Below, piece by piece: positions 4,348 to 48,446 of a DNA stretch of 64,000 bases (the first letter of the stretch is position 1; every line of letters starts with the position of its first letter). This DNA is from Patescibacteria group bacterium (lineage in GTDB: Bacteria; Patescibacteriota; Minisyncoccia; UBA6257; 2-01-FULL-56-20): the NCBI GenBank assembly GCA_024654525.1, contig JANLHI010000032.1:64172-128171 (forward strand), written 5' to 3'. Below the pieces are notes generated by a model that was not told the origin of the DNA, made no database searches, and saw nothing but the letters and a program-made list of their open reading frames with translations. Made by a program: the position numbers and the translations under genes.

Positions 4348-4453
4348 TAAAGTTTAAATTAATGTTTAAAGTTCTAAATCTAAAATAAATCATTTTGATA
4401 TTTAGATTTTGGATTTAATCTCTCATTTAGACTTTGAAATTTAAACTTATTAC

Positions 4454-9360: not shown

Positions 9361-9394
9361 AATGAAAGAACAGTATTAGGCGGGAATATTTTTT

Positions 9395-13150: not shown

Positions 13151-13225
13151 GCGCCCGTAGTTCAACGGATAGAATACATCCCTCCGAAGGATGATATCGA
13201 GGTTCAATTCCTCGCGGGCGCACCA
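13151..13225 (+). tRNA. tRNA-Arg (anticodon CCG)
   Basis: Cloverleaf by hand: acceptor GCGCCCG/CGGGCGC, anticodon stem CATCC/GGATG with loop CTCCGAA, T-arm GAGGTTCAATTCCTC, encoded CCA. Confidence 0.85.
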
Positions 13226-25401: not shown

Positions 25402-25750
25402 GGGGATGATCGGCTTTGATGGAGCTGGAATGCATACCTGCGAGCCGAGTGTGAATCTCGCAAACTTCACAAACCTATTAACTGACAACTCAAAAGTTGC
25501 AGCTCCGGCATTCGCCTACGCGTAATGCTGCTTGCTCGCCAAAACTTTAGTGGCGGCGGGGAGGATCGTGCCATCGGTGTCTCTTCGGTGAATCACGGTC
25601 TTATATAAGGAGGCTCGTCTCATAGTGGTTACTCTGTGCCCTATGGGATTAAAGTACATGGAGTATTCGTACTACTTTGTAGCACTACGCTCGTAGAGGG
25701 TATGTGTCACCCAGTTTCAGACGAGGGTTCAATTCCCTCCATCTCCACCA
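25402..25750 (+). ncRNA. ssrA: tmRNA (ssrA)
   Basis: 5' GGGGATG pairs with 3' CATCTCCACCA. tRNA-like T-arm GAGGGTTCAATTCCCTC. Internal tag ORF GCA AAC TTC ... GCC TAC GCG TAA. Length about 349 nt. Confidence 0.85.
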
Positions 25751-27391: not shown

Positions 27392-28309
27392 ATGACAGAA
27401 TCGAAAGGAAAAACTATGATCCATTTTTCAAATGGGATGAATGCCCAATATTTCGTGGCGAGCGGGGCGCTCGCGTTTGACGGGAAGGGATGGCCTTGGG
27501 AATGGCCGTTGCGGTGGCTGGGGCTGATTGATACCGATCCTTTTGCGGTTGTGGCAAAAAGTCTTATGCGCGTGCCGTGGAAAGGAAATCTCCGTTGGTG
27601 GAAGCCGTGGGAGTGTGTCCGGCTCATCAGAGACGGTTCGGTGAATAAGGTCGGTCTCACTAATCCGGGAGCTGAGTGGTGGTGCAGGGAAATCGGTCCT
27701 CGGATAAAGATTCGAAACATTCGGCTTATCGTATCCCTTTTTGGGACTACCGAGGAGCTTGTTGAAATGACTCGGATGGTCGATGGATTCGACATCGTGG
27801 GAATCGAGGTGAATTGGTCGTGTCCGAACAAAAAACACGAAGACACAACGGGTGCAATTATCGAAGGTGTCCGTGCAGTGAAGGAAGAAACAAATCAACC
27901 GGTTATTGCGAAGCTTTCCGTGGCGCAGGACTATGTCGCGATTGCGAAGGGTCTTGTGGGAGTTGCGGAAGCGATTTCCATCAATTCCGTACCGTGGGAA
28001 ATGGTCTATCCGGGTAAACTAAGTCCGCTCCGGCGACTCGAAAAACGGGTCGGCGGCGGGGGTGGTGGAGTTTCCGGAAAGGCGGCGCAACCGTTTACAT
28101 GGGAGACGGTGCGTCGTTTGTGCAAGGAGGTTCCTGAGATGCCGGTCATCGCACCGAGTATCTGGGAATATGGTGATATTGCGAAAGTCCGCGCGCTTGG
28201 CGCAAAAGCGGAGAGCTTCGGCGCAATCTTTTTGCGCGCGCCGTGGCGACCCACTGAATTTGTGCGGCGGGAAATCAAAGAACTACAGAGAGAAAGGAAA
28301 AACTCATGA
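27392..28309 (+). CDS. Dihydroorotate dehydrogenase family (PyrD-like) TIM-barrel oxidoreductase
   Basis: Motifs NPGAEWW, GIEVNWSCPN, VIAKLSV and GGVSGKAAQP match class-1 DHODH-like enzymes. GC-rich relative to flanks. Confidence 0.6.
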   Translation: MTESKGKTMIHFSNGMNAQYFVASGALAFDGKGWPWEWPLRWLGLIDTDPFAVVAKSLMRVPWKGNLRWWKPWECVRLIRDGSVNKVGLTNPGAEWWCREIGPRIKIRNIRLIVSLFGTTEELVEMTRMVDGFDIVGIEVNWSCPNKKHEDTTGAIIEGVRAVKEETNQPVIAKLSVAQDYVAIAKGLVGVAEAISINSVPWEMVYPGKLSPLRRLEKRVGGGGGGVSGKAAQPFTWETVRRLCKEVPEMPVIAPSIWEYGDIAKVRALGAKAESFGAIFLRAPWRPTEFVRREIKELQRERKNS

Positions 28310-29433
28310 AAATCAGCGAAGATAAAAACACGATTACATTCAGAATTACGGATGACTGGCACTTTCATTTCCGACAGGGTGCGCTCCTCGAGTTCCTGGT
28401 GCGGTTACTCATTAAACATGGGTGGCGAGGGAGGGTGGTGGGGGAGCCGAATATTACACCGCCAATACTCACCGGCGACAAAGCGGTTGTGTACCACGAC
28501 CGGATAATGGGAAGTGCGGAGAGGCTGTGTTCCACGTTCAAGATGATCCGGGTAATGCAAATCACCGAACAAACCACGCGGATGATGGTGCGTGCCGCGT
28601 ATTTCGCAGGTGTCCGCATTTTCAAAGTTTATCCGCGCTGGGTGACGACGAATTCGGAAAACGGCGTGGTGGATTACACGATGATTTATCCCGCACTCGA
28701 CGAGCTTCAAAAGCTTCGGCAAGAAAACTATAATCCCGGAGAGCCGGACGTAGTGGCGCAGTTTCACGCGGAAAGTCCTCGGGAAGAAATTGAAGGACTG
28801 TTCAAAGAAGAGGCGTTTCTTACGGACGAGTGTGAGATGGGCGGTATCAATTGCAAATTCCCGGAATTGCCGATGACGATAGAACATATCAAGTCGGCGT
28901 TCGGTGTGAAGTGGATACTCCAGCAACCCGGTACGCGGAAAATCGCGGCGGGTATCACTATCCAACATATTACCAATACCGTGGATGATGTTCTGGGCTA
29001 TAGCAGGCGTAGCGGTGGACTTGTGTGTGTACATGATGGGTTTAAACCACATGCGGGACTCCGTGCGGATCGCGCCGCGGTTCAGGAAGTGGTGCTCTCG
29101 GGAAATCCGCTATTCTTTTACGCGGGTGACGGCGCGTGGCACTTCCGAAAAAAGAAGGAATGTTGCGGGGCAAGTTGCGGAGCGGCGAATACACTCGCGG
29201 CATTACCGCTCCTCATCAAGTTTTTCAAAGGAAACAATATGCTACACCGATTGGAACCGTTCACTTCGCAGTTCGGCGCGGAGTTCTACGGGTATCCGCT
29301 GAACGAAGGGACGGTGACATTCGTACGGAAGCCATGGAAAATTCCGGAGACACTTCCGGTGATCGGCGTAGTGGATGATGTGGTTGTCCCGTGGCGATTC
29401 GGCGAAGAAATGGAATGGCAGATTACGGACTAG
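28306..29433 (+). CDS. pyrC: Dihydroorotase, E. coli-type (class II)
   Basis: N-terminal DDWHFHFRQG (cf. DDWHLHLRDG). KVYPRWVTTNSENGV. C-terminal cysteine cluster KKECCGASCGAANTLAALP (cf. RKESSCGCAGCFNAP). Confidence 0.8.
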   Translation: MKISEDKNTITFRITDDWHFHFRQGALLEFLVRLLIKHGWRGRVVGEPNITPPILTGDKAVVYHDRIMGSAERLCSTFKMIRVMQITEQTTRMMVRAAYFAGVRIFKVYPRWVTTNSENGVVDYTMIYPALDELQKLRQENYNPGEPDVVAQFHAESPREEIEGLFKEEAFLTDECEMGGINCKFPELPMTIEHIKSAFGVKWILQQPGTRKIAAGITIQHITNTVDDVLGYSRRSGGLVCVHDGFKPHAGLRADRAAVQEVVLSGNPLFFYAGDGAWHFRKKKECCGASCGAANTLAALPLLIKFFKGNNMLHRLEPFTSQFGAEFYGYPLNEGTVTFVRKPWKIPETLPVIGVVDDVVVPWRFGEEMEWQITD

Positions 29434-29545: not shown

Positions 29546-31300
29546 ATGGAAAAGAGGTCGTGCCAGCATTGCAAAGAACAATTTATGGTTGATGCCGCGG
29601 ATCGGAATTTTTATGCGCGTCTTGATGTTCCGCCACCGATATTGTGCCCCACGTGCAGGATGATACGGCGGCAACTTTTTCGGAACGAACGCGCACTTTA
29701 TAAGCGTGCGTGTGATTTGTGTAAAAAAAGCGTGGTGAGTATGTATGCGCCCGATTCGCCCTACATTGTCTATTGTGTTGAGTGTTACCAATCGGACAAG
29801 TGGGATTCGATGAGTTACGGGAAAGAATATGATTTTTCGCGCCCGTTTTTTGAGCAGTTCAACGAGCTGATGCATGTGGTGCCGCGACGGGCGCTCTATA
29901 TTGATTTCGCGACAGCGAGTGACTATACGAATTGGGGTGTGAATTTAAAAAATTGCTATCTCGTGTTCGGCGGGCACCATTACGAGGACTGCAACTATTC
30001 GAGTCAAAGTTTCTATCTCACCGATTGTACGGACGTGGATTTTTGCCAGCGGAGCGAATCGTGTTACGGCTCGGTGCATCTCCGGCACTGCAGTCGTGTG
30101 CGATTCAGTTCGTTCTCCGAGGATTGTTCGGATTCGTGGTTCTTGTATGGATGTCGCAATTGCCAGAATTGTATAGGATGTACCAACTTGCGGAATGTGT
30201 CGTGCCATATTTTCAATGTCCGTTACTCAAAAGAAGAGTATGAAGCAAAAGTCAAAGAATTTTGTCTTGATACCGAAGAAGGGCTTATGCGCGTGCGCAA
30301 TAAGTTTTCACAACACACATTACAGTTTCCGCGGAAGTTTGCATGGGTACGGAATGCGACGGGATCGACCGGGGATGACCTTGATAATGTGAAAGATTGT
30401 GTCCGGTGTTTTTCCGCAACGGAGGTGGAGAATTGCCGATACTCGTTCTTTATCCCTACGCAGGCGAAAGACAGTTATGACATTGACCATGTGGGGATGA
30501 GCGCGCAACTCACGCTTGAGCTCGTAAGCGGGTTTGGGACGGAGCGCGTAGCGTTTAGCAACCGCGTGTATTACACGCATGATGCCTATTATTGCGATGA
30601 CTGTTATAACTCTGCAAACCTTTTTGGATGCGTAGGACTCAAGAAAAAAGAGTATTGTATTTTGAATAAGCAGTATTCCAAGGATGAGTATGAAAAGATG
30701 AGAATGAAAATTATTGAACACATGACGCGCACGGGGGAATACGGCTTGTTTTTCCCGCCGGAACTTTCTCCTTTTACCTATAAAGAAACAGTTGCGCAGG
30801 AATACTTTACCCTCACTAAAGAGGAGGCCAGCGCGCAGGGATTTCGCTGGAAAGATTCCGAAAAAAAGCAGTATGAGCCGACCATTCATGTGGGGGATAT
30901 TCCTGCGGGCATCGGGGATGCAAAGGATTCACTCACGGGAGAAATTTTTGAGTGTTTTCATAAAGGGGGATGCAATGAACAATGCACAGAAGCGTTCCGG
31001 ATTATCCCGCAGGAGCTTCAGTTTTTGCGAAAGCTTGGAATTTCATTGCCGCGTCTTTGTCCGAATTGTCGGCACTATGAACGATTACGAATGCGAAACC
31101 CAATGAAATTATGGCGCCGTATGTGCCAGTGTACTCGCACGAATCAAGAATCAGGAAGCGAGAATCAAGCCAGATATCAGAATACCGTCACTCATTTCCA
31201 TGGAGGCGTCCCATGCCCGAATGAATTTGAAACCTCCTACGCGCCGGATAGGAAAGAGATAGTATATTGTGAAAATTGCTATCAATCCGAAGTTGTATGA
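29546..31300 (+). CDS. Cysteine-rich 584-aa protein with paired zinc-ribbon modules at both termini and a Cys-repeat core
   Basis: N-terminal CQHC...CPTC and CDLC...CVECYQSD. C-terminal CFHKGGC...CPNC and YAPDRKEIVYCENCYQSE. The two terminal modules look like duplicates of each other. The middle region has Cys every 10-13 residues. Confidence 0.6.
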   Translation: MEKRSCQHCKEQFMVDAADRNFYARLDVPPPILCPTCRMIRRQLFRNERALYKRACDLCKKSVVSMYAPDSPYIVYCVECYQSDKWDSMSYGKEYDFSRPFFEQFNELMHVVPRRALYIDFATASDYTNWGVNLKNCYLVFGGHHYEDCNYSSQSFYLTDCTDVDFCQRSESCYGSVHLRHCSRVRFSSFSEDCSDSWFLYGCRNCQNCIGCTNLRNVSCHIFNVRYSKEEYEAKVKEFCLDTEEGLMRVRNKFSQHTLQFPRKFAWVRNATGSTGDDLDNVKDCVRCFSATEVENCRYSFFIPTQAKDSYDIDHVGMSAQLTLELVSGFGTERVAFSNRVYYTHDAYYCDDCYNSANLFGCVGLKKKEYCILNKQYSKDEYEKMRMKIIEHMTRTGEYGLFFPPELSPFTYKETVAQEYFTLTKEEASAQGFRWKDSEKKQYEPTIHVGDIPAGIGDAKDSLTGEIFECFHKGGCNEQCTEAFRIIPQELQFLRKLGISLPRLCPNCRHYERLRMRNPMKLWRRMCQCTRTNQESGSENQARYQNTVTHFHGGVPCPNEFETSYAPDRKEIVYCENCYQSEVV

Positions 31301-33099: not shown

Positions 33100-33567
33100 C
33101 TACTCCCTTTGCATCTCCCGTTCTATAGTCCGTTTCTTTATCGCTTGTCGTTTGTCATGTTTCTTTTTCCCTCGGGCAAGGGCGAGTTCTATTTTTATTA
33201 AATTTCCTTTGAGGTGGACATTCAAGGGGATAAGCGATGTTCCTTCGCGGAGGGCTCCTACGAGGTATTTTATTTCGTCTTGAGTAAGAAGAAGTTTGCG
33301 GGTTGTGTCTGCGGTGTAATCGGGAGAAACGTTCATGGGTTGATATGCGGGGATTTGTGAGCCTACAAGGAATACTTCTCCCGCCGCACTTCGCGTACCG
33401 CTACGGCGAGCCGAAGCACGAATAATGGCGCGGCTTCCCGCGAGTCCCATACGTTTCGATTTCACGCTTTTTACCTCGTGTCCCTTGAGTATGATTCCCA
33501 CCTCGAATGTTTCGAGGATATCGTAATCAAATCGAGCGCGTTTGTTTTCTGCGAGTATTACCATGCC
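33100..33567 (-). CDS. smpB: SsrA-binding protein SmpB
   Basis: ENKRARFDYDILETFEVGIILKGHEVKS, TRKLLLTQDEI, ARGKKKHDKR. Start taken at the internal Met (MVILAENK). Confidence 0.85.
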   Translation of the reverse strand, partial: GMVILAENKRARFDYDILETFEVGIILKGHEVKSVKSKRMGLAGSRAIIRASARRSGTRSAAGEVFLVGSQIPAYQPMNVSPDYTADTTRKLLLTQDEIKYLVGALREGTSLIPLNVHLKGNLIKIELALARGKKKHDKRQAIKKRTIEREMQRE

Positions 33568-34160
33568 TGTATCATATTGTTTTATAAGAAGACATTCAAA
33601 CGCACGAACCATATAAAAAATAATGCGCGCAACTTTGAGAGTTGCGCGCATGCCCCTTGCTTTCCATAATGAAACCCTCCAATATTTTTGAATGTTCGAA
33701 GTCCATATTTGCCGCTATGGGCAAATTTGAGGAAAGCACCCTTGCTTCTTTCACCGTAACACACAAGAGTTCGGGGTCAAGGAAAGTTTTTGGTAAAAAA
33801 ATGAGAGCATCGGCTTTCCAATGCTCCCACTCACTTTCGACCAACAAGGCGTGTTATCGCCAGGGGATGGCATTGAAGAGCCTTGTATGATCCCCTTTAT
33901 CTTAAAAAAGAAGAGTCTCTGAGGCAAGTCTACTTCCGTTTCTGTGTTTTCTGCGTTATTCTTCAAAAAGAAAAAGGGCGGGGGCTGGTACGTGTTAAAC
34001 CAGACACCCCGCCTTGACGAGAAATTGTTTTTACTTCTTATTAGGAAAAAGTCAAGTGACAGTGGTATTTTTTTATATTGAATTCTCAGGCTCTATCACC
34101 CCCTTCCTTATTTAAGGATTGGATTGTACCACTGTCACTCTTGGGTTTTACTCTATCACT

Positions 34161-35759
34161 ATGCAAAAGAAAATTCAATCAATACTCATAGATATATTTG
34201 AGACTTCGGAACTCGTTTCGGTAACTGTGCCGGTGAGCGGCCTTCACGGACATTATGCGACGAATGTGGCGTTTGCGTTCGGGAAAACGCAACAACGGAA
34301 ACCTGCGGAAGTCGCGAAGGAGTTTGTAGAAAAAATTCTTGCCACCGCGCCGGAAGGATTTTTTAAAAAAGTAGAAGCGACATCGCAAGGATTCATAAAT
34401 TTTTGGCTTACTCCTTCGGCGTTTCACGAAGAGCTTGGAATAATTCTTGAGGAGGGCGCGCGATACGGATCGGATGATATCCTTAAAGGGAAGAAAGTTC
34501 AGATTGAATTTATTTCCGCGAATCCTACGGGACCGCTTACACTTGCGAACGGGCGAGGAGGATTTTTCGGTGACGTATTCGCAAATGTTCTCGAATATTT
34601 TGGCGCAGAAGTTGAGCGGGAATACTATGTGAATGATACGGGGAATCAGATTATCACCCTTGGAAAATCCGTGCTTGCGGTTGCGGGAAAGATTCCTGTC
34701 GAAGAGAAATTTTATAAAGGATCATATGTTGCCGAGTGGGCGGCGGAACATGCGGACGTGATTGTTCTTCACGAGAATAATCCATTGCAGTTGGGACAAG
34801 CCGTTGCAAAGGATTTATTTGATAAGATTCGCACGGTCATAGAGAAAAAAGCGAATATTCGATTTGACCGATGGACTTCCGAATACGGGGATATCCATAA
34901 AAAAGGGTTTATCGAAAAAATAATAAAACTTCTCAAAGCAAAAGGGTTACTTTACGATGCCGAAGGCGCCACATGGCTTAAAACTACCCAGTTTGGAGAT
35001 GATAAAGATAGGGTTGTGGTGACGAGTGATAAATTTCCGACATATTTTCTTGCCGATGCGGGGCATTTTTTGGAAACAAAAGAGAGGGGTTTTGACGAAA
35101 AGATTTTTTTGTTTGGTCCGGATCATTACGGATATGTGAAACGTATTAGCGCGGTTGCGGAGCTTGTGGGCATTGCAAAATCCGAAGCGATTGTTACGCA
35201 GGCGGTACGGCTTGTGGAAGAGGGGAAGGAGGTGAAGATGTCGAAGCGAAAAGGTGAATTTATCATGCTTGAAGAGTTGATTGATGAAGTGGGGACGGAT
35301 GCCACGCGTTTCTTCTTTCTTCAAGTTTCTCCAGAGGCACACATGGATTTTGATTTGGGACTTGCGAAAGAGAGATCGTCAAAAAATCCTGTATACTATG
35401 CACAATACGCATATGTGAGAGCGAGGAAGATTTTGGAACATTCAGAGAATAAGGATCAGGGATTAGAAAGTAAGCACGCGCTTTCTCGGCTTACAGGGGA
35501 GAATGAATTGAGGCTTATCCGGACGCTTGTGCGGATGCCGGAGGTGATGCACGGATCTCTTGAAGCGAGGCGTGTGCATCGTATTACTCAATATGTTGTA
35601 GAGGTGGCAAGCGCATTCCATAGATTCTATGAAGCGGAGAGAGTGGTCGGTGAACCGAAGGAGATCGAAGATGCGCGTATTCTTCTTGTGCGCGGGGCAG
35701 CTGTCATTCTTGAAAATACGCTCACTATACTTGGTGTGAGCAGGCCGGAGGAGATGTAG
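34161..35759 (+). CDS. argS: Arginyl-tRNA synthetase
   Basis: ISANPTGPLTLANGRGG (HIGH-equivalent region). C-terminal DALR anticodon-binding region. Start placed at MQKKIQ because an inverted repeat overlaps the upstream ATG. Confidence 0.85.
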   Translation: MQKKIQSILIDIFETSELVSVTVPVSGLHGHYATNVAFAFGKTQQRKPAEVAKEFVEKILATAPEGFFKKVEATSQGFINFWLTPSAFHEELGIILEEGARYGSDDILKGKKVQIEFISANPTGPLTLANGRGGFFGDVFANVLEYFGAEVEREYYVNDTGNQIITLGKSVLAVAGKIPVEEKFYKGSYVAEWAAEHADVIVLHENNPLQLGQAVAKDLFDKIRTVIEKKANIRFDRWTSEYGDIHKKGFIEKIIKLLKAKGLLYDAEGATWLKTTQFGDDKDRVVVTSDKFPTYFLADAGHFLETKERGFDEKIFLFGPDHYGYVKRISAVAELVGIAKSEAIVTQAVRLVEEGKEVKMSKRKGEFIMLEELIDEVGTDATRFFFLQVSPEAHMDFDLGLAKERSSKNPVYYAQYAYVRARKILEHSENKDQGLESKHALSRLTGENELRLIRTLVRMPEVMHGSLEARRVHRITQYVVEVASAFHRFYEAERVVGEPKEIEDARILLVRGAAVILENTLTILGVSRPEEM

Positions 35760-35812: not shown

Positions 35813-38800
35813 ATGACTGAAGATTTTTCAAAAGGAGAATTTAAATTATCGGAAGGGGATTTCGTCCTCCCGAAGGCGGAAGAGAGTATCCTTGCGTTTT
35901 GGGAGAGTAAGGAAATTTTTGCGAAATCTCTCGAAAAAACAAAAAATGGGAAGCCCTTCACATTCTATGATGGACCTCCGTTTGCAACGGGAACTCCCCA
36001 TTATGGGAGTCTGTTGAGTTCCATTATTAAAGATGTAGTGGGGAGGTATCAGACCATGAAGGGGCGATATGTACGTCGCCGATGGGGTTGGGATTGTCAT
36101 GGATTACCGATTGAAGAAATCGTTGAACGGGAGCTTGGTATTTCGGGGAAGAAGCAAATAGAAGAGCTTGGTATCGAAAAGTTCAATCAGACGTGTCGTA
36201 CTATGGTATTGCAGTATGTTGTTGAATGGAAAAAGATGATTCGTCGTATTGCGCGATGGGTGGATTTTGATAATTCATACAAGACGATGGATCGGGATTT
36301 TATGGAATCCGTATGGTGGGCGTTTAAACAGATGTACGACAAGAATCTTATCTACGAAGGGAGAAAAGTCCTTCTCTATTGTCCGCGGTGCGAGACACCG
36401 GTATCAAACTTTGAAGTGGCGATGGACAACTCGTATAAGGAAGTCACTGAAGAGGCCGTGACGGTGAAATTCAAAGTGAAGCCTGGGCAGAAAATAGGGA
36501 AGTGGGAAGTGCAGGAGCATACCTACTTTATTGCATGGACTACAACTCCATGGACGCTCCCTGGTCATGCGGCTCTCTATGTTTCAGAAACTATGGAATA
36601 CGTACGAGTAAAGCAGGGAAACGAATTTTATATTGTGGCAAAGGCTTTGCTGGAGAATATCTTTAAGGGAATATATGAAGTTTCGGAGGATATCAAGGCA
36701 AAAGATTTAGTTGGCCTTTCTTATACGCCACCGTTTGAGGTTCCCGTAATGGCTTCGCCACAGTCATTTAAGGTGTGGGTTGGAGATTTTGTTACTGCTG
36801 ATGCGGGCACCGGTGTGGTACATAGTGCGGTTGTGCATGGAGAAGAGGATTACCAGCATGGCATAAAATCGGGATTACCCACCGTTTTACTTCTTGATGA
36901 AAAGGGTCACTTCAACGAGAAGGCGCCGGAGCTTGTGCGCGGGCAGTACTTCAAAAAGGCGGACAAGATTATCATTCAAGACCTTGAAACGCGAGGACTG
37001 CTTTTTGCAAAAGCGCCGCATGCGCATTCATACCCTCACTGCTGGCGTTGCGCTACCGCGCTCTTTTATAACGCCATCCCCGCGTGGTTTGTGAATATAC
37101 AAAAAATCAAACCGGAGCTTTTGAAATCAAACGAGAAGGAAATAAATTGGTTTCCCGCGCATCTGAAATTCGGAAGGTATGCGAACAGTGTGTCGCAAGC
37201 TCCCGATTGGAATATTTCTCGGAACCGCTACTGGGGAAATCCCATTCCCGTATGGAAGTGTGAATCGTGCGGGGAAAATACGGTAGTAGGAAGCATTCAC
37301 GAGTTGGGATTAGGAACAAATACGCTTTATGGTGCACGGCATGGACTTGCGGAGAGTAATATCCGCACAATTCACAGCGGATACATGGAGAACGACCCGA
37401 TTGATCTTGTGGAAAAAGGCGTGCAGCAGGCAGAGGAGATGGCGAAACATTTGAAGAAGGGTGGGGGAGTCGATTTGATTGTGTCGTCTGACGTACGACG
37501 TACGAAGCATACTGCAGAAATTGTCGCGAAGATTCTGGGATGTCCCGTAGAATATGATGCGCGTTTACGTGAATGGAATTTGGGTATATGGAATGGCAAG
37601 CCGTGTGAAGGACTGCATCACAAACTTCCTTTTGAGAAGCGATGGACAGAGGCGCCCGAAGGAGGAGAGACGTGGACAGACCTTCAAGCGCGGATGGTGG
37701 AGGCGGTAAAAGATATTAATCAAAAACATAAAAATACGCGAATACTTATTATTAGTCATGGGGATCCGCTGTGGCTTGTGCGGAAATACTTTGGTGCGGA
37801 GACTGGATATCCGGGAGTTGGCGAGGTATTCTCGCTTAACGTCGATATTGACGACCTTCATCGTCCGGGAATTGATGCGGTAACGCTTCCATGTAAATGC
37901 GGTGGCACTGCGCGACGCATTAAAGAGATTTTTGATTCATGGATGGAGGCGGGTTCAATGCCTTTTGCTGAATATCATTATCCTTTTGAGCAAAAGGATT
38001 TATTCGAATCGCGCCTTCCGGCGCAGTTTGTTGCGGAGTATATTCCACAGACGCGTGCATGGTTTTATGTGATGCATGTCACGTCGCTCATTCTTTTTGG
38101 GAAGGCGCCCTTCGAGAATGTGGTAACTACCGGTACCGTGCTTGCCGAGGATGGTGCAAAAATGAGCAAATCAAAACGAAATTATCCTGATCCGTGGGAA
38201 GTGATTGAGCGTTACGGTTCCGATTCTCTTCGATTTTATCTTATGCATTCGCCGGTGATGCAAGCGGAGGATTTAAATTTTAGCGCGCGCGAACTCGAGG
38301 GGCTTCACCGGAAAATTGTGCTCATTTTGTCGAATGTGGAAAAATATTTTGTAACGTACGCAAGGGAGTCAGATTTCAGATATCAGATTTCAGATCTCGG
38401 ACAAGAATCCGAAAATATACTGGATCAATGGATTGTTGCGCGAACAAAAGAATTGGTAAGCGGCGTGACGGAATATATGGATGTCTACGACACCGTGCGT
38501 GCGACACGGATTATTGAAGAATATATCTCTGATCTTTCTACGTGGTATGTACGTCGGAGTAGGGGGAGGAGGGATGAGGTATTTTTTAGAACATTATGCG
38601 ATACGCTTCTTACGACAAGTAAAGTGATTGCGCCTTTCATGCCCTATCTTGCGGAGCATATCTATCACTCGACTCGTGAATTTAGCGGGGTTTTGGAAGA
38701 GTCAGTGCATCTTGTCGATTGGCCGAAAGGGAAAAAACTTACAAAAGACGAGGAGGCGTTGCTTCGTGATATGGTGCTGGTGCGCGATCTTGCGAGTAAA

Positions 38801-39250
38801 GCGCTTGCAGTGAGGAAAACGGCGGGGATTCCCATTCGACAGCCGCTCGCGACGCTGCGAATTAGAAATGGGAACATCGGGAATGATAAAAACAGAATAG
38901 ATTTTATGTGGATATTAGTGGAGGAGTTGAATGTGAAGGAGATTAAAATCGACTCATCTATTTCCGAGGATGTGATGTTTGATACGGTAATCACTCCGGA
39001 ATTAAAAATCGCAGGTTTCGTGCGCGGACTTGAGCGTAGTATTCAAGGGTTGAGAAAAACACAAGGATTTAACGTGGGAGAGGAGGCCGTGCTTTTTTAT
39101 GAAACCGCTGATGTGGATTTGGAGTCTGCGATAAAGCAGGTTGATATAAAGAAAACTTATATTAAGAGTATTAAACGTGCTCAAAAAGAAAATGCTTTAA
39201 AGCACACGTTTGAGGGTAAAGAAATAGGAATTATCCTCGAAAAAGTGTAA
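35813..39250 (+). CDS. ileS: Isoleucyl-tRNA synthetase (type 2) with an in-frame histidine-phosphatase domain insertion
   Basis: PPFATGTPHYGS (HIGH), KMSKS, CP1 editing-domain motifs. At 1145 aa it is about 180 aa longer than expected. Confidence 0.85.
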   Translation: MTEDFSKGEFKLSEGDFVLPKAEESILAFWESKEIFAKSLEKTKNGKPFTFYDGPPFATGTPHYGSLLSSIIKDVVGRYQTMKGRYVRRRWGWDCHGLPIEEIVERELGISGKKQIEELGIEKFNQTCRTMVLQYVVEWKKMIRRIARWVDFDNSYKTMDRDFMESVWWAFKQMYDKNLIYEGRKVLLYCPRCETPVSNFEVAMDNSYKEVTEEAVTVKFKVKPGQKIGKWEVQEHTYFIAWTTTPWTLPGHAALYVSETMEYVRVKQGNEFYIVAKALLENIFKGIYEVSEDIKAKDLVGLSYTPPFEVPVMASPQSFKVWVGDFVTADAGTGVVHSAVVHGEEDYQHGIKSGLPTVLLLDEKGHFNEKAPELVRGQYFKKADKIIIQDLETRGLLFAKAPHAHSYPHCWRCATALFYNAIPAWFVNIQKIKPELLKSNEKEINWFPAHLKFGRYANSVSQAPDWNISRNRYWGNPIPVWKCESCGENTVVGSIHELGLGTNTLYGARHGLAESNIRTIHSGYMENDPIDLVEKGVQQAEEMAKHLKKGGGVDLIVSSDVRRTKHTAEIVAKILGCPVEYDARLREWNLGIWNGKPCEGLHHKLPFEKRWTEAPEGGETWTDLQARMVEAVKDINQKHKNTRILIISHGDPLWLVRKYFGAETGYPGVGEVFSLNVDIDDLHRPGIDAVTLPCKCGGTARRIKEIFDSWMEAGSMPFAEYHYPFEQKDLFESRLPAQFVAEYIPQTRAWFYVMHVTSLILFGKAPFENVVTTGTVLAEDGAKMSKSKRNYPDPWEVIERYGSDSLRFYLMHSPVMQAEDLNFSARELEGLHRKIVLILSNVEKYFVTYARESDFRYQISDLGQESENILDQWIVARTKELVSGVTEYMDVYDTVRATRIIEEYISDLSTWYVRRSRGRRDEVFFRTLCDTLLTTSKVIAPFMPYLAEHIYHSTREFSGVLEESVHLVDWPKGKKLTKDEEALLRDMVLVRDLASKALAVRKTAGIPIRQPLATLRIRNGNIGNDKNRIDFMWILVEELNVKEIKIDSSISEDVMFDTVITPELKIAGFVRGLERSIQGLRKTQGFNVGEEAVLFYETADVDLESAIKQVDIKKTYIKSIKRAQKENALKHTFEGKEIGIILEKV
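37314..37851 (+). other. Histidine phosphatase (PGAM/SixA-like) domain embedded in IleRS between WKCESCGE...SIHELGLG and DLHRPGID...CKCGG
   Basis: LYGARHGLAESN (RHG motif), VSSDVRRTKHTAEIV (second Arg), ILIISHGDPL (catalytic His). The flanking IleRS zinc-knuckle halves are otherwise contiguous in type-2 IleRS. Confidence 0.75.
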
Positions 39251-39270: not shown

Positions 39271-40251
39271 CTACGATTGAGGAACATCTTTTATCCTGCT
39301 CTTTTTAACGAATAAGTTATGATAGGGCGCCCGCTCTCCTTCTTTGAGAGGGCGAAGATCTCCTTTATCAAAGGTATAGGGTTGATAGCCGAAGTTTTTC
39401 AGAAATGAAAATATTTCTCGGGAGTCGGTGGAGTTCACCTCCGACCACAGGAGGGGGGCATCTTCTCTTTTGAGTAATTGTGTTGCCCCGCGCAGGACTT
39501 CTATGGTTTTGCCTTCAACATCGCATTTTATGAAATCCACCTTCGAAATCGCGTTTTTTTGAACATAGGAATCAAGAGTAATTACCTCTACATCCCGAAC
39601 TTCTCCTTGGCTGGTGTGTTCCCGCTCGGACGCGGTAATCAGCCGGGCAAATGCGGGACCGAGGGATTTTTGCACAAGGAATGGCTCGGACCCGAGTTTG
39701 TCGCTTAGGGCAATTTGTTCCAAGTTAAAGCGCGTCCGATCGTGGAAATTCAACCCCATGTTCTTTTGGAGTTCGGAGTAGCTTTGAGGTTCGGGTTCGA
39801 AGCAATACAGTTTTCCGGCTGAACCGACGAGGCGCGCAAAGACCACTGACCACCAACCAAAACTTGCTCCAATGTCCATTACAGTTTGTCCAGGGCGAAC
39901 GAGAAGTTTAAATACAGCTGCTTCTGTTTGGTCATAAAGTCCTCTGTCGCGACATATGATAATACTCAAAAGACTATTTGGGTCTGTGGGGTCCCACACA
40001 AAAAAACGTCCGTCTTTAAGTTCTATGACACAATCCTCGGGCGTTACTCGGTATGAAGAGAGGGCACCGGTGGAAAGGAGAAAATGGCGCAGTTTAGTGA
40101 CGGCGCGCATTTGATTTTTCCCGGTAGTTCGCCAGAAAAATCTGAATATCGCGCGACCTGTTTGGAAAAAGAAAGACCCTCTCTTTAAGAAGGGTATTTT
40201 ATTGAGAATCTCTACAAGCTTCTCTTTTGTATTTTGGAGAAAAACAAGCAT
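39271..40251 (-). CDS. FkbM-family SAM-dependent methyltransferase
   Basis: MDIGASFGWWSV (SAM motif I). CDVEGKTIEVLRGA is typical of FkbM-family methyltransferases. Confidence 0.7.
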   Translation of the reverse strand: MLVFLQNTKEKLVEILNKIPFLKRGSFFFQTGRAIFRFFWRTTGKNQMRAVTKLRHFLLSTGALSSYRVTPEDCVIELKDGRFFVWDPTDPNSLLSIIICRDRGLYDQTEAAVFKLLVRPGQTVMDIGASFGWWSVVFARLVGSAGKLYCFEPEPQSYSELQKNMGLNFHDRTRFNLEQIALSDKLGSEPFLVQKSLGPAFARLITASEREHTSQGEVRDVEVITLDSYVQKNAISKVDFIKCDVEGKTIEVLRGATQLLKREDAPLLWSEVNSTDSREIFSFLKNFGYQPYTFDKGDLRPLKEGERAPYHNLFVKKSRIKDVPQS

Positions 40252-40266: not shown

Positions 40267-41484
40267 CTATGTGATTGAAATCCCAATTTTTTTCTTCACT
40301 TCGGCAATTTTTTTCCCCGCAACTTTTGCGGCTTTTTTCGATCCCGCCGTAAGGAATTTTTTAAGCTGATTTGGCTTGGTAATCAACTTCTTTTTCTTTG
40401 CACGGAAAGAAGAGAAGTGATTTGTGGTAAGCGTAATGAGTTTTGATTTGAACTCGGAATATGTTTTTCCGGAAAATTGTTTTTCGACTCTCGAGATAGT
40501 TTCGTCAGAAAGCGAAGAGTAGATGCGGAGAAGGTTTGCCAACGCAGGCTTATTTTCTTCATCAAATTTTACTTCCGATCCTGAATCGGTTACCGCGCGT
40601 TTTATTTTTGTTTCAATATCTGAGGGGGAGTCATCAAGGAAAAGGCATCCGTTGGGTTCCGACTTAGACATTTTGCGCGCAGGATTGCCCAAGCTCATCA
40701 CACGCGGTACTTCGGTGAGAAGGGGTTTTGGTTCAATGAATGTTTCACCCCCGCCTTCGCCGAGGCTTCGGCGGGCAGGAAATCTCGCATTAAATTTCCG
40801 CACGAGCGTGCGCGTGAGCTCAAGGTGCTGGAGCTGGTCGTCGCCCACGGGTACGAAGGCAGTGTTATAGAGGATGATGTCCGCGGCCATCAAGACGGGG
40901 TAAGTGAAAAGACCCACATTCGTATCTTCGAGCGCCTTATTTGCGGTTTTTAAGTGTCTTCCTCTAACATCTTTGATTATCGCCCCAATTTTTTGTTTCA
41001 AAAGATAGCTAGGACGTATGGGCACCTCCATTTTTTTTGCTTCTTCTTCAATCTTAGACATGAACATTTTGTCATTTACTGTTTTTTCAAGAGCGTCTAG
41101 CTCATCTTGTATTCTTTTGTCATCCTCTAATAAACCGATTTTTTCTTTGAATTGAGTCATGCGATTTAATTCGCCGAATGGAGTGGCGGTTCCCAAAATC
41201 CACGCAAGCTCGCTATGCGCGGGAATCGCTGATTGGAGCGCAACCACAGATTTCTTAGGGTCAATGCCCGCCGCGAGATAATCAGCGGCAAGGTTCAGAA
41301 TGTTCTCGTGCAATTCCTCCGGCTCTGGACTTTCCGTAAGTGCGTGAAGATCTACTATCAAAAAATAACATTGATATCTTCCGGTTTTTTGAAGTAACAC
41401 CCAGTTTTTCAAAGCACCCAAGTAGTTTCCTATATGGAGTCTTCCGGTTGGCTGAATTCCCGAGAGAAGTATTGGTTTAGACAT
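40267..41484 (-). CDS. trpS: Tryptophanyl-tRNA synthetase (long form, about 70-aa internal insertion)
   Basis: SGIQPTGRLHIGNYLGA and FLIVDLHALT at the N-terminus. KMSKS. Confidence 0.85.
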   Translation of the reverse strand: MSKPILLSGIQPTGRLHIGNYLGALKNWVLLQKTGRYQCYFLIVDLHALTESPEPEELHENILNLAADYLAAGIDPKKSVVALQSAIPAHSELAWILGTATPFGELNRMTQFKEKIGLLEDDKRIQDELDALEKTVNDKMFMSKIEEEAKKMEVPIRPSYLLKQKIGAIIKDVRGRHLKTANKALEDTNVGLFTYPVLMAADIILYNTAFVPVGDDQLQHLELTRTLVRKFNARFPARRSLGEGGGETFIEPKPLLTEVPRVMSLGNPARKMSKSEPNGCLFLDDSPSDIETKIKRAVTDSGSEVKFDEENKPALANLLRIYSSLSDETISRVEKQFSGKTYSEFKSKLITLTTNHFSSFRAKKKKLITKPNQLKKFLTAGSKKAAKVAGKKIAEVKKKIGISIT

Positions 41485-41563: not shown

Positions 41564-43222
41564 TTAAATCTCAATCACCACCGGCAGTATCATCGGCCTT
41601 CTCCTCGTCTTGTTGTAGAGGAATTGCCCCAGCTGGTCGCGAATAAGAGTCTTGAGATAGTCCGGTTCGAGCGGTTGGCTCGCGGGAAGGCGAGCGGTGA
41701 GTGCCCGGATGCGCTTGCGCATTTCTTCGAGTAGCTCCTGGTGTTCTTTGAGGAAAATGAAGCCGCGCGAAATAATGTCCGGACTTTTCAAAAGATGTCC
41801 GCCTTTGTCGCGGTCAATAGTAACGATAACCACTACCATGCCTTCTTGCGCCAATGCCCTGCGGTCGCGCAATACCACTTCTTCAACATCTCCTACTCCA
41901 AGTCCGTCCACCATTACATAGGATGCAGGCACGGTTTCTTTCGTGATGCGGAAAGTCTCTTCATTCATGGCGGCAACCTGACCGTTTTCCATAAGAAAAA
42001 CGTTTTGGCGCGGGATGCCGATTTCAACCGCGTTCTGCGCGTTCACGAAGCGCTTGTAGTAATAGCCGTGTACGGGAATGAGGAATTTCGGGTTAAGGAG
42101 TTTCATTGCGAGCTGGAGGTCTCCCTTCGTCGCATGACCCGACGAGTGAATGTCCACTATGTCGGAATGGTAAATGATAGCACCCTGCCGCGCGAGATCG
42201 TCTTTGATGGTTTGTACGCTCCGCTCGTTTCCGGGAATAACCGATGAGGAAAGCATGACGGTGTCCCCGGGTCTGATTGAAACCTGCCGGTGTTCGCCGT
42301 TGATGATTTTCATGAGCGAGGCGTTCGACTCGCCCTGTGCGCCGGTCGAGAGAATGAGAAGTTTGTTATCGCGATATTTGTGAATTTCTTCGAGGGGAAT
42401 AATCGCGCCATCTTTTGTCTTGATAAGTCCGAGGTTTTGCGCAATCTGCACGTTTGACTTCATGGAATATCCCGAGAGCGCCACATGCCGCCCGAGCTTG
42501 CCCGCAATTTTTATCACCTCGCCGATACGCGTAAGGACGGACGCGAACATCGCGACAATGATGCGCCCCTCGGCTTTTTCGAACAGTTCTTCGAGATTTT
42601 TTTCGACAATCCGCTCGGAGGGGGCTCGTTCAATGACATCGGCGCCCGTGCTGTCCGTCATAAACGCGGTAATGCCCATTTTACCCACGCGCTCCAGCTC
42701 GTCGAGGTTATACGCAACACCCTTCGCATCGTACTCGATTTTAAAATCGCCGAGACTCACCACTTTCCCTGCGGGCGTCGAGAGCACCACACCGACGGAT
42801 TCGGGAATGGTGTGTTCAACCGTGAAAAACTCCGCCTTGAAGTGATTCGAGAGCTGGATAACATCGCGCGGTTTTACGTTAACGAAAACGAGCTTCTGAC
42901 GGTTCGGGAAATCATCCTGCCGCTTTTCGATAATGGCGCGGCTCAAAGACGAAGTATAGATTGGAGGATTGCCGAGCTTATCCATCACGTAGGGCAGGGC
43001 ACCTATGTGGTCGTAATGCGCATGCGTGATAATAATCGCGCGGACATTCTCTTTGTGCGCTTCGAGGTATTCCGTATTGGGAATGATGTAATCCACCCCG
43101 GGAGTATTCTCTTCGGGGAACTGAAGTCCGGCATCAATAACGACTATTTCGTTTTTATATTCGAAAAACATCATATTGCGGCCGATGGTGTCCAATCCTC
43201 CGAGAGCCACAAAACGGAGCAT
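41564..43222 (-). CDS. rnj: Ribonuclease J
   Basis: MLRFVALGGLDTIGRNMMFFEY N-terminus, ITHAHYDHIGALPYV, beta-CASP and C-terminal domains. The ORF continues upstream to 43633 through GC-rich repeats (a possible 137-aa extension). Confidence 0.85.
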   Translation of the reverse strand: MLRFVALGGLDTIGRNMMFFEYKNEIVVIDAGLQFPEENTPGVDYIIPNTEYLEAHKENVRAIIITHAHYDHIGALPYVMDKLGNPPIYTSSLSRAIIEKRQDDFPNRQKLVFVNVKPRDVIQLSNHFKAEFFTVEHTIPESVGVVLSTPAGKVVSLGDFKIEYDAKGVAYNLDELERVGKMGITAFMTDSTGADVIERAPSERIVEKNLEELFEKAEGRIIVAMFASVLTRIGEVIKIAGKLGRHVALSGYSMKSNVQIAQNLGLIKTKDGAIIPLEEIHKYRDNKLLILSTGAQGESNASLMKIINGEHRQVSIRPGDTVMLSSSVIPGNERSVQTIKDDLARQGAIIYHSDIVDIHSSGHATKGDLQLAMKLLNPKFLIPVHGYYYKRFVNAQNAVEIGIPRQNVFLMENGQVAAMNEETFRITKETVPASYVMVDGLGVGDVEEVVLRDRRALAQEGMVVVIVTIDRDKGGHLLKSPDIISRGFIFLKEHQELLEEMRKRIRALTARLPASQPLEPDYLKTLIRDQLGQFLYNKTRRRPMILPVVIEI

Positions 43223-43336
43223 GTCGGTGGTGTCCTCGTGAGGAGTATGCGGAGCGTGGTATGAAGCCTCGTGCGAAACGATGGACTGGCGCACCTGTCC
43301 GCCGCTTTGACGAGCGCCTCTACCTGGGCGGTAAGC

Positions 43337-43576
43337 GCCTGCCTGCCGATAGGCATGGCCTGCCTGCCGATAGGCGGGATTTGGTGTTGGGTCGGCGGGT
43401 AAACTTCTTTTTCCGGGTCGGTGTGAGGGACGGGGAGGTGCAATGCGCTGGTGCCCTCCTTCGCTGGTGTGACTTGCGGGAGCGGCCTGCCGACGGGGCT
43501 CTGCCCGGCGCGCACCTGCCTGCCGGTAGGCAGGCCCCGCGTGCCGACCAGATATGCCTTGCCTATCAGCAGGCAG
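43337..43576. repeat. Cluster of four GC-rich near-palindromic REP-like repeats (GCCTGCCTGCCG[A/G]TAGGC...) in the rnj 5' extension
   Basis: Tandem copies at 43337-43354 and 43358-43375, a copy at 43515-43534, and a degenerate copy at 43557-43576. Same element as 31338-31358. Confidence 0.65.
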
Positions 43577-43684
43577 ACCCGTGGCAGGACGATCAAACGA
43601 TTTTTTTTCTGCTGGTTTTTGGTTGTTGAACATAACTGAAATGATTAATAATTTTTTACTTCTTACTACTTTTCTATCCTCTTC

Positions 43685-44020: not shown

Positions 44021-44030
44021 TGTTCTTTAG

Positions 44031-44114
44031 TGCTGGAGGGGAGAGTTGAACTCCCATGATCTTGCGATCGCTGGCTCCTGAAGCCAGTGCGTCTGCCAGT
44101 TCCGCCACCCCAGC
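44031..44114 (-). tRNA. tRNA-Leu (anticodon CAG)
   Basis: Cloverleaf by hand on the minus strand: acceptor GCTGGGG/CTCCAGC, anticodon stem CTGGC/GCCAG with loop TTCAGGA, long variable arm, T-arm GGGAGTTCAACTCTCCC. No encoded CCA. Confidence 0.8.
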
Positions 44115-46880: not shown

Positions 46881-48446
46881 TTAGATAATTCCTTCTAGCA
46901 GACTTCTTCCTGTCATTTCCTCGGGTTGGGGAAGGCCGAAAAGCTCGAGTATGGTTGGTGCAACATCGGCAAGAGAACCCATGGTTTCCGTTCCCAGTTT
47001 TTGCCAGTTGGCGAATTTTTTTCCTCTAAACCGAGATGCGACAAGGTGAAAAGGGACTGGGTTTGGGTCGTGTTGAGATTCCATGAGTCCCGTGGTGGGG
47101 TTAAGTACTTGCTCTATGTTACCGTGATCTCCGGTGATGATGAGAATATGATTTTCTTTGAGTGAGTGTATGATGCGGGCTATTTCCGCGTCTACTACGT
47201 GTACTGCGGCGATCGACGCATCGTAGTTTGCGGTGTGTGCCATAGTGTCGGGGTTTGCATAGTTTGCAAGGATAAAATCGAATGAATCATCACTTAATGC
47301 CTCAATAATTCTGTCGGTGATTGCTGTCGCTTGCATTTCCGGGTGTTCTTCCGGTTTTGATGTCGAGAGGGAGGGCACGACTACGCGATATTCTCCTTTA
47401 AATGGAGATTCTTCGTATCCGTTGAAAAAATAGGTGACATGAGCGTATTTATAGGTTTCGGCGATGCGAAGTTGATTTTTTCCGTGAGCGGATAGTATTT
47501 CTCCCAAGGACTTTTTTACTGTATCGGGCATAAATGCGACAGGCGCGGGTATACCTTTTTCGTAGTGGGTCATGGTAACGCCGAAAAGATTTTTAATTTG
47601 TTTTCTTGGGAATGCGGAAAAGTCGGGTTTGAGAAAGGCCTCGGCGATTTGTCGCACCGAATCTTCGCGGAAATTCCAAAATATGATTGCGTCATTGTCA
47701 CAGATAGCGCTGTCTTCTTTGAGTCGGATAGGGACAAGATATTCTTCTGTGAGACCTTTGTCATAGAGAGAATGAATTATGGGAAGAGGGTCTTGTACGA
47801 GGGGGTTGGCGGTGTTGGTCATAAGGTCATATGCCGCTTTGGTGAGTTGCCAGTTTTTATTGCGGTCCATAGCATAATAACGACCTGTAAGAGTTGCAAT
47901 GGCAGATCGTGGCAGTTCGGCAAACATTTTTTCGAGTGTTTTTGGAGGACTGTCCTTTCCGTCTGCCCAAAGATGAAGTTTTACATTGGATATCCCTTCC
48001 TTTTCTGCGAGTGCGAGAAGTGCGCGTATATGATCAAAAGAAGCGTGCACGCTCGCTTTTGTGAGAAGTCCGGCAAGATGAAGAGCGGAGTTGTGCGTGC
48101 GGGCATGCGCACAGGCTTGTTTCAGTGCGGTATTATCGAAGAAGCTTTTATCTTGGATAGCCATAGTAATTTTAGGGAGATATTGATACAGGATTTTTCC
48201 CGCGCCAAGAGTGAGGTGTCCCACTTCGCTGTTTCCTACTTCTCCCCACGGGAGACCCACTCCAATGCCTGATGCTTGAAGGCTGGTTATGGGAAATTCT
48301 CGGGAAATAGCCTCTATCGTTTTTGGTTGGGCGATGTAAATAGGGTTTGATTCGTCATTTCTTCCAATACCCCATCCGTCAAGAATTACGAAGATAATTG
48401 TAGTCTTCATTTTGCTAATCATCCCATAAGAATCTGTCTCTTCCAA
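46881..48446 (-). CDS. gpmI: 2,3-bisphosphoglycerate-independent phosphoglycerate mutase
   Basis: ILDGWGIG, GNSEVGHLTLGAGKI, ITGDHGN motifs. The start may be the internal Met at 48422. Confidence 0.85.
   Translation of the reverse strand: MEETDSYGMISKMKTTIIFVILDGWGIGRNDESNPIYIAQPKTIEAISREFPITSLQASGIGVGLPWGEVGNSEVGHLTLGAGKILYQYLPKITMAIQDKSFFDNTALKQACAHARTHNSALHLAGLLTKASVHASFDHIRALLALAEKEGISNVKLHLWADGKDSPPKTLEKMFAELPRSAIATLTGRYYAMDRNKNWQLTKAAYDLMTNTANPLVQDPLPIIHSLYDKGLTEEYLVPIRLKEDSAICDNDAIIFWNFREDSVRQIAEAFLKPDFSAFPRKQIKNLFGVTMTHYEKGIPAPVAFMPDTVKKSLGEILSAHGKNQLRIAETYKYAHVTYFFNGYEESPFKGEYRVVVPSLSTSKPEEHPEMQATAITDRIIEALSDDSFDFILANYANPDTMAHTANYDASIAAVHVVDAEIARIIHSLKENHILIITGDHGNIEQVLNPTTGLMESQHDPNPVPFHLVASRFRGKKFANWQKLGTETMGSLADVAPTILELFGLPQPEEMTGRSLLEGII

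Follow-up and report, generated by a model that had tools for sequence, protein, structure and literature searches.

Aminoacyl-tRNA synthetases (aaRS) belong to the best-studied enzymes, and new catalytic domains within their cores are rare. For isoleucyl-tRNA synthetase (IleRS), solved structures of type 2 (eukaryote/archaeal-like) are available for IleRS2 of Priestia megaterium (8c8v), for the yeast enzyme (8wnd) and for that of Thermus thermophilus (1ile), all of which possess the CP1 editing motifs, the KMSKS loop, the anticodon-binding domain and a C-terminal DUF5915. CP3 is a subdomain that varies in structure from one IleRS to another and bears a zinc motif in T. thermophilus (PMC7191050). 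Here we describe an ileS gene in which this subdomain harbors a predicted phosphatase. The gene is located in a stretch of 64,000 nucleotides from a Patescibacteria group bacterium (assembly GCA_024654525.1, contig JANLHI010000032.1, positions 64,172 to 128,171 of the forward strand), referred to as the window throughout, and a histidine-phosphatase domain is nested in frame within the encoded synthetase. We propose that this domain is probably an active enzyme that is functionally coupled to IleRS and acts on a small molecule.

The phosphatases closest to the insert are the broad-specificity enzyme PhoE (YhfR) of Geobacillus stearothermophilus (1ebb/1h2e), the metal-independent phosphoserine phosphatase PspA (4ij5) and the alpha-ribazole phosphatase CobC (6e4b, 6nru), which have the branch-1 fold, the short cap and the R-H-R-E-H set in common with it (query TM-scores, TMq, of 0.74-0.84; 22-32% identity). 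Unlike these free-standing enzymes, the insert is nested in another protein, and its subfamily within the Candidate Phyla Radiation (CPR) is linked specifically to ileS. A CobC-like histidine phosphatase fused to a nucleic-acid enzyme is found in the bifunctional RNase H/acid phosphatase of the Mycobacterium Rv2228c type (NF005567, PRK07238); this fusion is, however, end-to-end instead of nested, it involves another partner, and the insert scores far below the cut-off of the corresponding model. A curated precedent also exists for a foreign enzyme domain in IleRS, namely the synthetase with an inserted GNAT domain (NCBIfam NF040702, ileS_w_GNAT), which differs in the kind of domain inserted and which the window protein matches with 280 bits against a cut-off of 1999. 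Finally, a histidine-phosphatase domain is present in the tRNA production machinery of yeast, in the TFIIIC subunit tau55 (Tfc7); this protein differs in that it is eukaryotic, that the domain is the N-terminal one of a transcription factor and that the context is not homologous.

The Host Synthetase and the Site of Insertion

The ileS open reading frame (ORF; 35813-39250, plus strand, by ORF call) encodes a protein of 1145 aa. The whole protein matches the NCBIfam model TIGR00392 (ileS) with 799.7 bits against a cut-off of 621.4, and Pfam assigns to it tRNA-synt_1 (aa 26-507 and onward), His_Phos_1, Anticodon_1 and DUF5915. An AlphaFold2 model of the full-length protein, computed with a family alignment of 52 sequences, reached a mean predicted local distance difference test (pLDDT) of 90.1 and a predicted TM-score (pTM) of 0.81. 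In Foldseek comparisons it matched the full-length fold of 8c8v, 8wnd and 1ile at 29-34% identity, with target TM-scores (TMt) of 0.81-0.92. The CP1 editing motifs WTTTPWT and GTG.VH...D are intact, and W242-T248, G332, G334, H337 and D346 are invariant in the family alignment; the KMSKS loop (aa 783-787) lies at 38159-38173 (plus strand). The HIGH signature, at 35999-36010 (plus strand, aa 63-66), reads HYGS, by which the window protein differs from the three solved enzymes. At its fourth position 48 of the 52 family members have His, and the window protein and its three closest relatives (L002-L004) have Ser; this variant is unusual and probably functional. Judged by motifs and model, the host appears to be a bona fide type-2 IleRS that keeps its synthetic site, its CP1 editing site and its anticodon-binding domains.

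The second difference from the solved enzymes is an enzyme domain of 178 aa in place of a CP3 loop of about six residues. The knuckle that receives the insert is the CP3 subdomain, which in the window protein has a Cys4 zinc knuckle as in T. thermophilus IleRS. Its first half, C483-x-x-C486 (37259-37270, plus strand), is located in the segment WKCESCGE (aa 481-488) and forms part of a beta-hairpin (strands 480-483 and 489-491), which is followed in the model by a short helix (495-498) just before the insertion point, within SIHELGLG (aa 494-501). The inserted domain, as delimited by Pfam PF00300, profile and AlphaFold2 model, then occupies aa 502-680 (37316-37852, plus strand). The initial annotation, which was made from the sequence of the window alone, had placed it at 37314-37851; the location was right, and the ends were one to two nucleotides out of codon phase, so that a literal translation of this interval runs into stop codons. 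IleRS CP3 resumes with DLHRPGIDAV (aa 681-690) and the second half of the knuckle, C694-x-C696 in LPCKCGG (aa 692-698), flanked by strands 691-693 and 699-702 (37853-37906, plus strand, from DLHRPGID through the knuckle cysteines). In 104 sequences with an insert at the same site, H683 and D688 after the insert are invariant, and the knuckle cysteines are kept in only about 70%.

That the ORF is about 180 aa too long, owing to an in-frame insert between two pieces that are contiguous in other enzymes, was already claimed in the initial annotation, and two comparisons bear this out. In a phmmer search against the PDB, aa 13-499 aligned with positions 4-489 of the yeast enzyme, and aa 678-1049 with positions 496-886; therefore, about 178 aa stand in place of about six. 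Moreover, both flanks are contiguous in P0014, a fragment of a close CPR IleRS without insert. RYWGxPxPxW and xHRPxxD are separated by about 218-253 residues in the 104 same-site sequences, as against about 37-44 residues in an ordinary IleRS. In its GC content (0.47-0.50) the insert matches the remaining gene. As had also been noted, the reading frame has no internal stop and the junctions (ELGLG/TNTLY and NVDID/DLHRP) are not those of an intein.

The Inserted Phosphatase Domain

A profile search, a structure prediction and a survey of related genomes had been suggested in the initial annotation as checks of the domain, and all three point in the same direction. The Pfam profile PF00300 (His_Phos_1) matches aa 508-659 with E = 5.3e-34 (118 bits; gathering cut-off 21.7), and a search of the PDB with a profile of the insert family retrieved PhoE 1ebb (5e-32), PspA 4ij5 (9e-31) and CobC (4e-24). 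The AlphaFold2 model of the insert alone (pLDDT 94.8, pTM 0.91) adopts the histidine-phosphatase fold and superposes on PhoE 1h2e (TMq 0.84, probability 1.00) as well as on CobC, GpgP, PspA and TIGAR.

The predicted catalytic residues are all present. The RHG motif (37337-37345, plus strand) comprises R509, the predicted phospho-accepting nucleophile H510, and G511. The predicted second phosphate-binding arginine, R563 (37499-37501, plus strand), resides in the motif SSDVRRT within the peptide SSDVRRTKHTAEIV (aa 558-571). E587 (37571-37573, plus strand; motif RLRE) is the predicted general acid/base, a role which we take from established knowledge of the family. The second catalytic histidine is predicted to be H649 (37757-37759, plus strand), in the SHGDP motif of the peptide ILIISHGDPL (aa 644-653). 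The RHG motif, the second arginine and the C-terminal histidine had all been recognized in the initial annotation, and the peptides quoted there occupy the expected positions. R509, H510, R563, E619 and H649 are invariant in the 104 same-site fusions and are also conserved in the 52-sequence alignment; further conserved positions among the 104 are S559 (0.99), R627 (0.98), E587 (0.91) and N516 (0.88), and G511 is kept at a level of at least 0.88. These residues are held while overall identity drops to 35-50%. Sequence and model thus depict a complete branch-1 histidine-phosphatase domain with an intact catalytic site, of the phosphatase type with a short, PhoE-like cap.

Assignment to a narrower group was attempted with the curated NCBIfam models. 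No equivalog cut-off is reached by the insert, the best match being NF005567 (RNase H/acid phosphatase) with 89 bits vs. 326. Phosphoglycerate mutases of the dPGM type are rejected by this measure (dPGM_arch 82.9 bits vs. 225, GpmB 66.8 vs. 261, pgm_1 25.8 vs. 81.7), as are SixA, which is matched partially (TIGR00249, 26.6 vs. 74.5), and membership in the PspA (69.7 vs. 350) and CobC (TIGR03162, 81.2 vs. 162.9) equivalogs. The domain had initially been described as PGAM/SixA-like; the fold so implied is correct, and the kinship has to be shifted from SixA and the mutases to PhoE, PspA and CobC. With a pI of 6.1 and a net charge of -4 the window insert is slightly acidic (family median pI 6.8), and it is the sole His_Phos domain within the 64-kb window.

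Distribution of the Same-Site Fusion

An exhaustive protein search across 1.84 billion cluster representatives yielded 119 representatives at E <= 1e-30. Most of them are proteins of 1100-1250 aa that contain flank, insert and flank in one stretch (about aa 440-740). A word-index protein search, by comparison, found a single other fusion, the fragment P0011, and nearly no full-length ones, an apparent rarity that is an artefact of this method; when queried with a profile, the word index likewise yielded free-standing proteins almost exclusively. P0011 is a fragment of only 268 aa because the assembly from which it stems (L001, ENA ERZ1286166 contig_5361) is ridden with frameshifts, and SHMT, ArgRS and IleRS are each split there into several called genes. 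On this contig ArgRS is followed by an IleRS of about 34% identity with His_Phos at the same site.

Furthermore, one motif derived from a seven-sequence alignment, I[LI]x[VI]SHGDPL, was searched in a genome set that represents each GTDB species once, and it matched 422 species genomes. Since only 14% of the known same-site inserts contain the motif, the number of carrier species must exceed the scan count, and the figure of 422 is no census. Our analysis of loci covers the best 80 of these 422 genomes' matches. Of the best 80 loci, 68 have the insert at the CP3 site within a long IleRS ORF; when the ORFs are inspected and truncated loci are counted, the number is about 70. Almost all of the 80 are labelled as Patescibacteria, among them Liptonbacteria, Doudnabacteria, Colwellbacteria, Nealsonbacteria, Terrybacteria, Azambacteria, Uhrbacteria, Harrisonbacteria, Spechtbacteria, Yanofskybacteria and others; some labels of binned metagenome-assembled genomes (MAGs) are generic or possibly wrong ("uncultured Candidatus Saccharibacteria"; isolated Gammaproteobacteria, Binatia, WOR-3 and Acutalibacteraceae). 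The closest scan locus, L002, belongs to a Candidatus Liptonbacteria MAG (79% identity). The fusion is therefore common in the Patescibacteria lineage and absent as a standard architecture from textbooks and from the literature searched, so that its initial description as non-standard holds for the latter and fails for the former.

The hosts fall into two IleRS subtypes, A (GPPFATGxPHYGH; 32 representatives, 25 GTDB loci) and B (GPPTANGxPGxHH; about 30 representatives, 38 GTDB loci). In average-linkage clustering of p-distances, inserts of both subtypes intermix with free-standing copies of CPR bacteria, at a resolution too low to give the number or the direction of the insertions. Compared with the six closest relatives (within the range L002-L011), the insert has an identity of 79-48% and the C-terminal half of IleRS one of 72-52%. 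The nonsynonymous divergence (dN) is 0.14, and synonymous divergence (dS) is saturated even against the closest relative, so that only dN and amino-acid identity are informative. As the insert diverges about as much as the IleRS body, it must be under purifying selection comparable to that on its essential host.

A Free-Standing Counterpart Upstream of ileS

Nine of the best 80 loci contain a free-standing phosphatase gene (about 195-260 aa) in place of the insert. In eight of the nine an ileS without insert in its CP3 follows immediately downstream of this gene, and in the ninth case the locus runs off the contig. The five closest free-standing proteins from a search with the insert profile (P0235, P0261, P0283, P0236 and P0250) were likewise looked up in their genomic context, and all five are encoded upstream of an insert-less ileS. 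Their gene order is smpB (minus strand), argS (plus), a small ORF in some, phosphatase (plus), ileS (plus), a NUDIX gene in one, and recO, with the phosphatase between argS and ileS. The order smpB-argS-phosphatase-ileS was found in L082, L083, L087 and L088 and matches the neighborhood of the window, where smpB (33100-33651, minus strand; Pfam SmpB) is the divergent neighbor that marks the smpB/argS/(phosphatase)/ileS block, and argS (34119-35759, plus strand; Pfam and synteny), encoding arginyl-tRNA synthetase, ends 53 nt upstream of ileS. In the insert loci argS is located upstream in 42 of 68. Two more distant homologues from outside the CPR, which were looked up in the same manner, did not show the linkage to ileS.

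The two arrangements exclude each other. Among 82 informative loci, 68 have only the insert, 14 have only the upstream gene, and none has both. This comparison of gene content shows that phosphatase and IleRS form a conserved partnership with two interchangeable states, of which the nested form is one.

Some loci depart from this scheme in detail. In L075, tandem free-standing His_Phos genes (3947-4540 and 4544-5125) precede the insert-less ileS directly. In L083 (4783-4935), L084 (2528-2680), L085 (4821-4994) and L088 (4836-4988), argS is separated from the free-standing phosphatase gene by a short ORF of 50-57 aa without Pfam match; in the window, given the argS-ileS gap of 53 nt, this ORF has no counterpart.

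Insertions at Other Sites and of Other Domains

The CP3 knuckle is not the only place at which His_Phos domains have entered synthetases. In other IleRS a second site is found after SGSMPYA and before DQTRGWFY, a third between the catalytic and the anticodon-binding domains, and in some proteins tandem copies are present within CP3. Examples are IleRS of 1200-1470 aa (P0102, P0151, P0163, P0170, P0199 and P0218) with His_Phos_1 at other sites or doubled in CP3, some of which have two copies. The domain also occurs in valyl-tRNA synthetase (ValRS): in P0154, a fragment of 1161 aa from a 3.9-kb contig with valS as its best NCBIfam match, three to four His_Phos_1 domains are arranged in tandem or interspersed, one of them at the position equivalent to CP3. 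These independent insertions, together with the two host subtypes, the paralogous host and the either/or relation with the adjacent gene, make a strong fusion/fission argument for functional partners.

Unrelated enzyme domains were found in IleRS of CPR bacteria as well. Besides His_Phos, NUDIX or GNAT domains are nested in P0202 (aa 226-343), P0218 (aa 606-690) and P0224 (aa 308-394 and about 965-1000), and in L088 a NUDIX gene (8948-9487) overlaps the stop codon of ileS. In the CPR, IleRS may hence be a general hotspot for taking in neighboring enzymes.

Other Genes of the Window

Downstream of ileS and on the opposite strand, the window encodes a FkbM-type methyltransferase (39271-40251), a class Ib synthetase (40267-41484) and RNase J (41564-43633). 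The class Ib synthetase (404 aa; tRNA-synt_1b) is of the Trp/Tyr type and is matched in two stretches; TyrRS and TrpRS of archaeal type have been reported from CPR bacteria (PMC5370408). A tmRNA gene with the tag peptide DNSKVAAPAFAYA is found at 25402-25750 (plus strand), about 7 kb from smpB, and tRNA genes are located at 13151-13225 (tRNA-Arg(CCG)) and 44030-44114 (tRNA-Leu(CAG)). Pfam further identifies a cofactor-independent phosphoglycerate mutase (iPGM; 46881-48446), and two ORFs of the plus strand have no Pfam match (28306-29433, 375 aa; 29546-31300, 584 aa).

Functional Interpretation

We favor the view that the insert is an active phosphatase which acts on a small molecule and whose function is coupled to that of IleRS, and we put the probability of this view at roughly 0.6. 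The window protein would then be a bifunctional IleRS from a Liptonbacteria-like member of the Parcubacteria. By the chemistry of the family, His510 would attack a phosphomonoester to give a phospho-His510 intermediate, with R509, R563 and H649 binding the phosphate and E587 protonating the leaving group as the general acid. The comparative data suggest that the phosphatase would be co-expressed with IleRS and held beside it, so as to act on a substrate linked to IleRS. The small PhoE/CobC-like cap and the near-neutral charge would favor a phosphoester of low molecular weight, possibly a nucleotide-like one, over RNA or another macromolecule, and the linkage to ileS favors a role of the phosphatase that is related to IleRS. 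Editing, regulation, action on tRNA 3'-phosphate ends and moonlighting had been raised in the initial annotation as possible functions.

Several observations weigh against this interpretation. The HIGH motif of the window protein is the unusual variant HYGS, and the insert remains below the cut-off of every curated NCBIfam equivalog. Its near-neutral to acidic character neither suggests RNA binding nor points to a substrate; as evidence this is weakly negative and not decisive. The occurrence of NUDIX and GNAT domains inside IleRS of CPR bacteria may mean that the loops of this enzyme are simply tolerant of insertion, and the conserved gene order in these small genomes could in part be due to inertia and not to function.

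As an alternative, the domain could be a metabolic hitch-hiker, i.e., a phosphatase with a housekeeping role outside aminoacylation, for instance on sugar phosphates, phosphoserine or nucleotides, that profits from strong, constitutive co-expression with ileS in a streamlined genome, its nesting in a tolerant surface loop being selectively near-neutral. We deem this possible, if on balance unlikely. The closest characterized relatives (PhoE, PspA, CobC, GpgP and TIGAR) are indeed small-molecule phosphatases, and the domain is not basic. Nesting of unrelated NUDIX and GNAT domains, the NUDIX gene that follows ileS in L088 and the existence of the curated ileS_w_GNAT model fit this alternative too, and CP3 is peripheral and structurally variable (PMC7191050). 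Neutrality, however, poorly explains repeated insertion at no less than three sites of IleRS and in ValRS, in both IleRS subtypes, nor does it readily explain the strict either/or relation with an adjacent free-standing copy. The adjacency to ileS persists at 35-50% identity and is lost in homologues from outside the CPR, and a gene that lies upstream does not enter an internal loop by simple fusion.

A further alternative, which we regard as improbable, would be macromolecular repair or regulation, in which phosphate is removed either from tRNA(Ile), for example from a 3'-phosphate, from the product of 2',3'-cyclic phosphate opening or from a CCA end that has been pyrophosphorylated, or from an IleRS phosphorylated by a toxin kinase or in some other regulatory way, so that a chargeable tRNA or an active synthetase is regained. 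It would account for the tight and exclusive linkage to IleRS and for the recurrence in ValRS, two enzymes that each have two sites for handling the 3' end of tRNA. The best NCBIfam match, the phosphatase half of RNase H/acid phosphatase, offers a precedent for pairing with a nucleic-acid enzyme, and the superfamily includes members that act on proteins, such as SixA, PGAM5 and Sts. We know of no member, however, that acts on RNA ends, the insert is devoid of net positive charge, and its small PhoE/CobC-like cap is typical of enzymes for small substrates. There is, moreover, no evident reason for a need specific to isoleucine, and CP3 is not among the tRNA-contacting elements reported for the solved yeast IleRS-tRNA complex (PMC11685878).

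It is very unlikely that the domain is a non-catalytic module whose fold only acts as a spacer in the structure, offers a platform for interactions or senses a ligand. Pseudo-enzyme domains are known in other aaRS; yet the catalytic residues are invariant or nearly so in more than 100 sequences at 35-50% identity, and a pure scaffold would not keep R-H...R...E...H. An artefact or a selfish element, in the form of a chimeric assembly, an intein or a recent mobile insertion, has nothing beyond the unusual ORF length to recommend it and can practically be dismissed, as the identical in-frame architecture occurs in dozens of independent assemblies, which also speaks against chance, there is no Hint or intein match in Pfam, no Cys or Ser as first residue and no C-terminal His-Asn plus Cys/Ser/Thr junction, and the insert shares the GC content of the host gene and is as diverged as that gene.

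Novelty and Implications

Each of the two component families is well known, and public assemblies already contain many sequences of this kind; it is the pairing of the families that is apparently undescribed. A full-text literature search, with most subscription-journal papers outside its scope, found no paper on an IleRS with a histidine-phosphatase insert or on an ileS-linked phosphatase gene, and the list of NCBIfam hits contains no model for an IleRS with a His_Phos insert.

Altogether, three observations from a large bacterial radiation link the apparently active phosphatase to IleRS: it is nested at several independent sites, it is otherwise encoded by the adjacent upstream gene, and the two arrangements exclude each other in all loci examined. 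This is "Rosetta stone" evidence, from fusion and fission, for a partnership that has apparently not been described. Should the substrate be tied to tRNA(Ile) or to the IleRS reaction, the phosphatase would represent a new accessory step of translation in CPR bacteria; should it be a metabolic enzyme, it would illustrate how bacteria with ultra-small genomes accommodate enzymes in loops of their essential proteins. We speculate, as a bolder and rather unlikely extension, that in Patescibacteria IleRS, and in some cases ValRS, has the phosphatase as an obligate catalytic partner, which performs a previously unrecognized phosphate-removal step in aminoacylation or its quality control. Such a step could consist, for instance, in removing phosphate or pyrophosphate from the 3' terminus of tRNA(Ile) or in dephosphorylating the synthetase; if this were true, the charging of tRNA in these bacteria would need a third active site.

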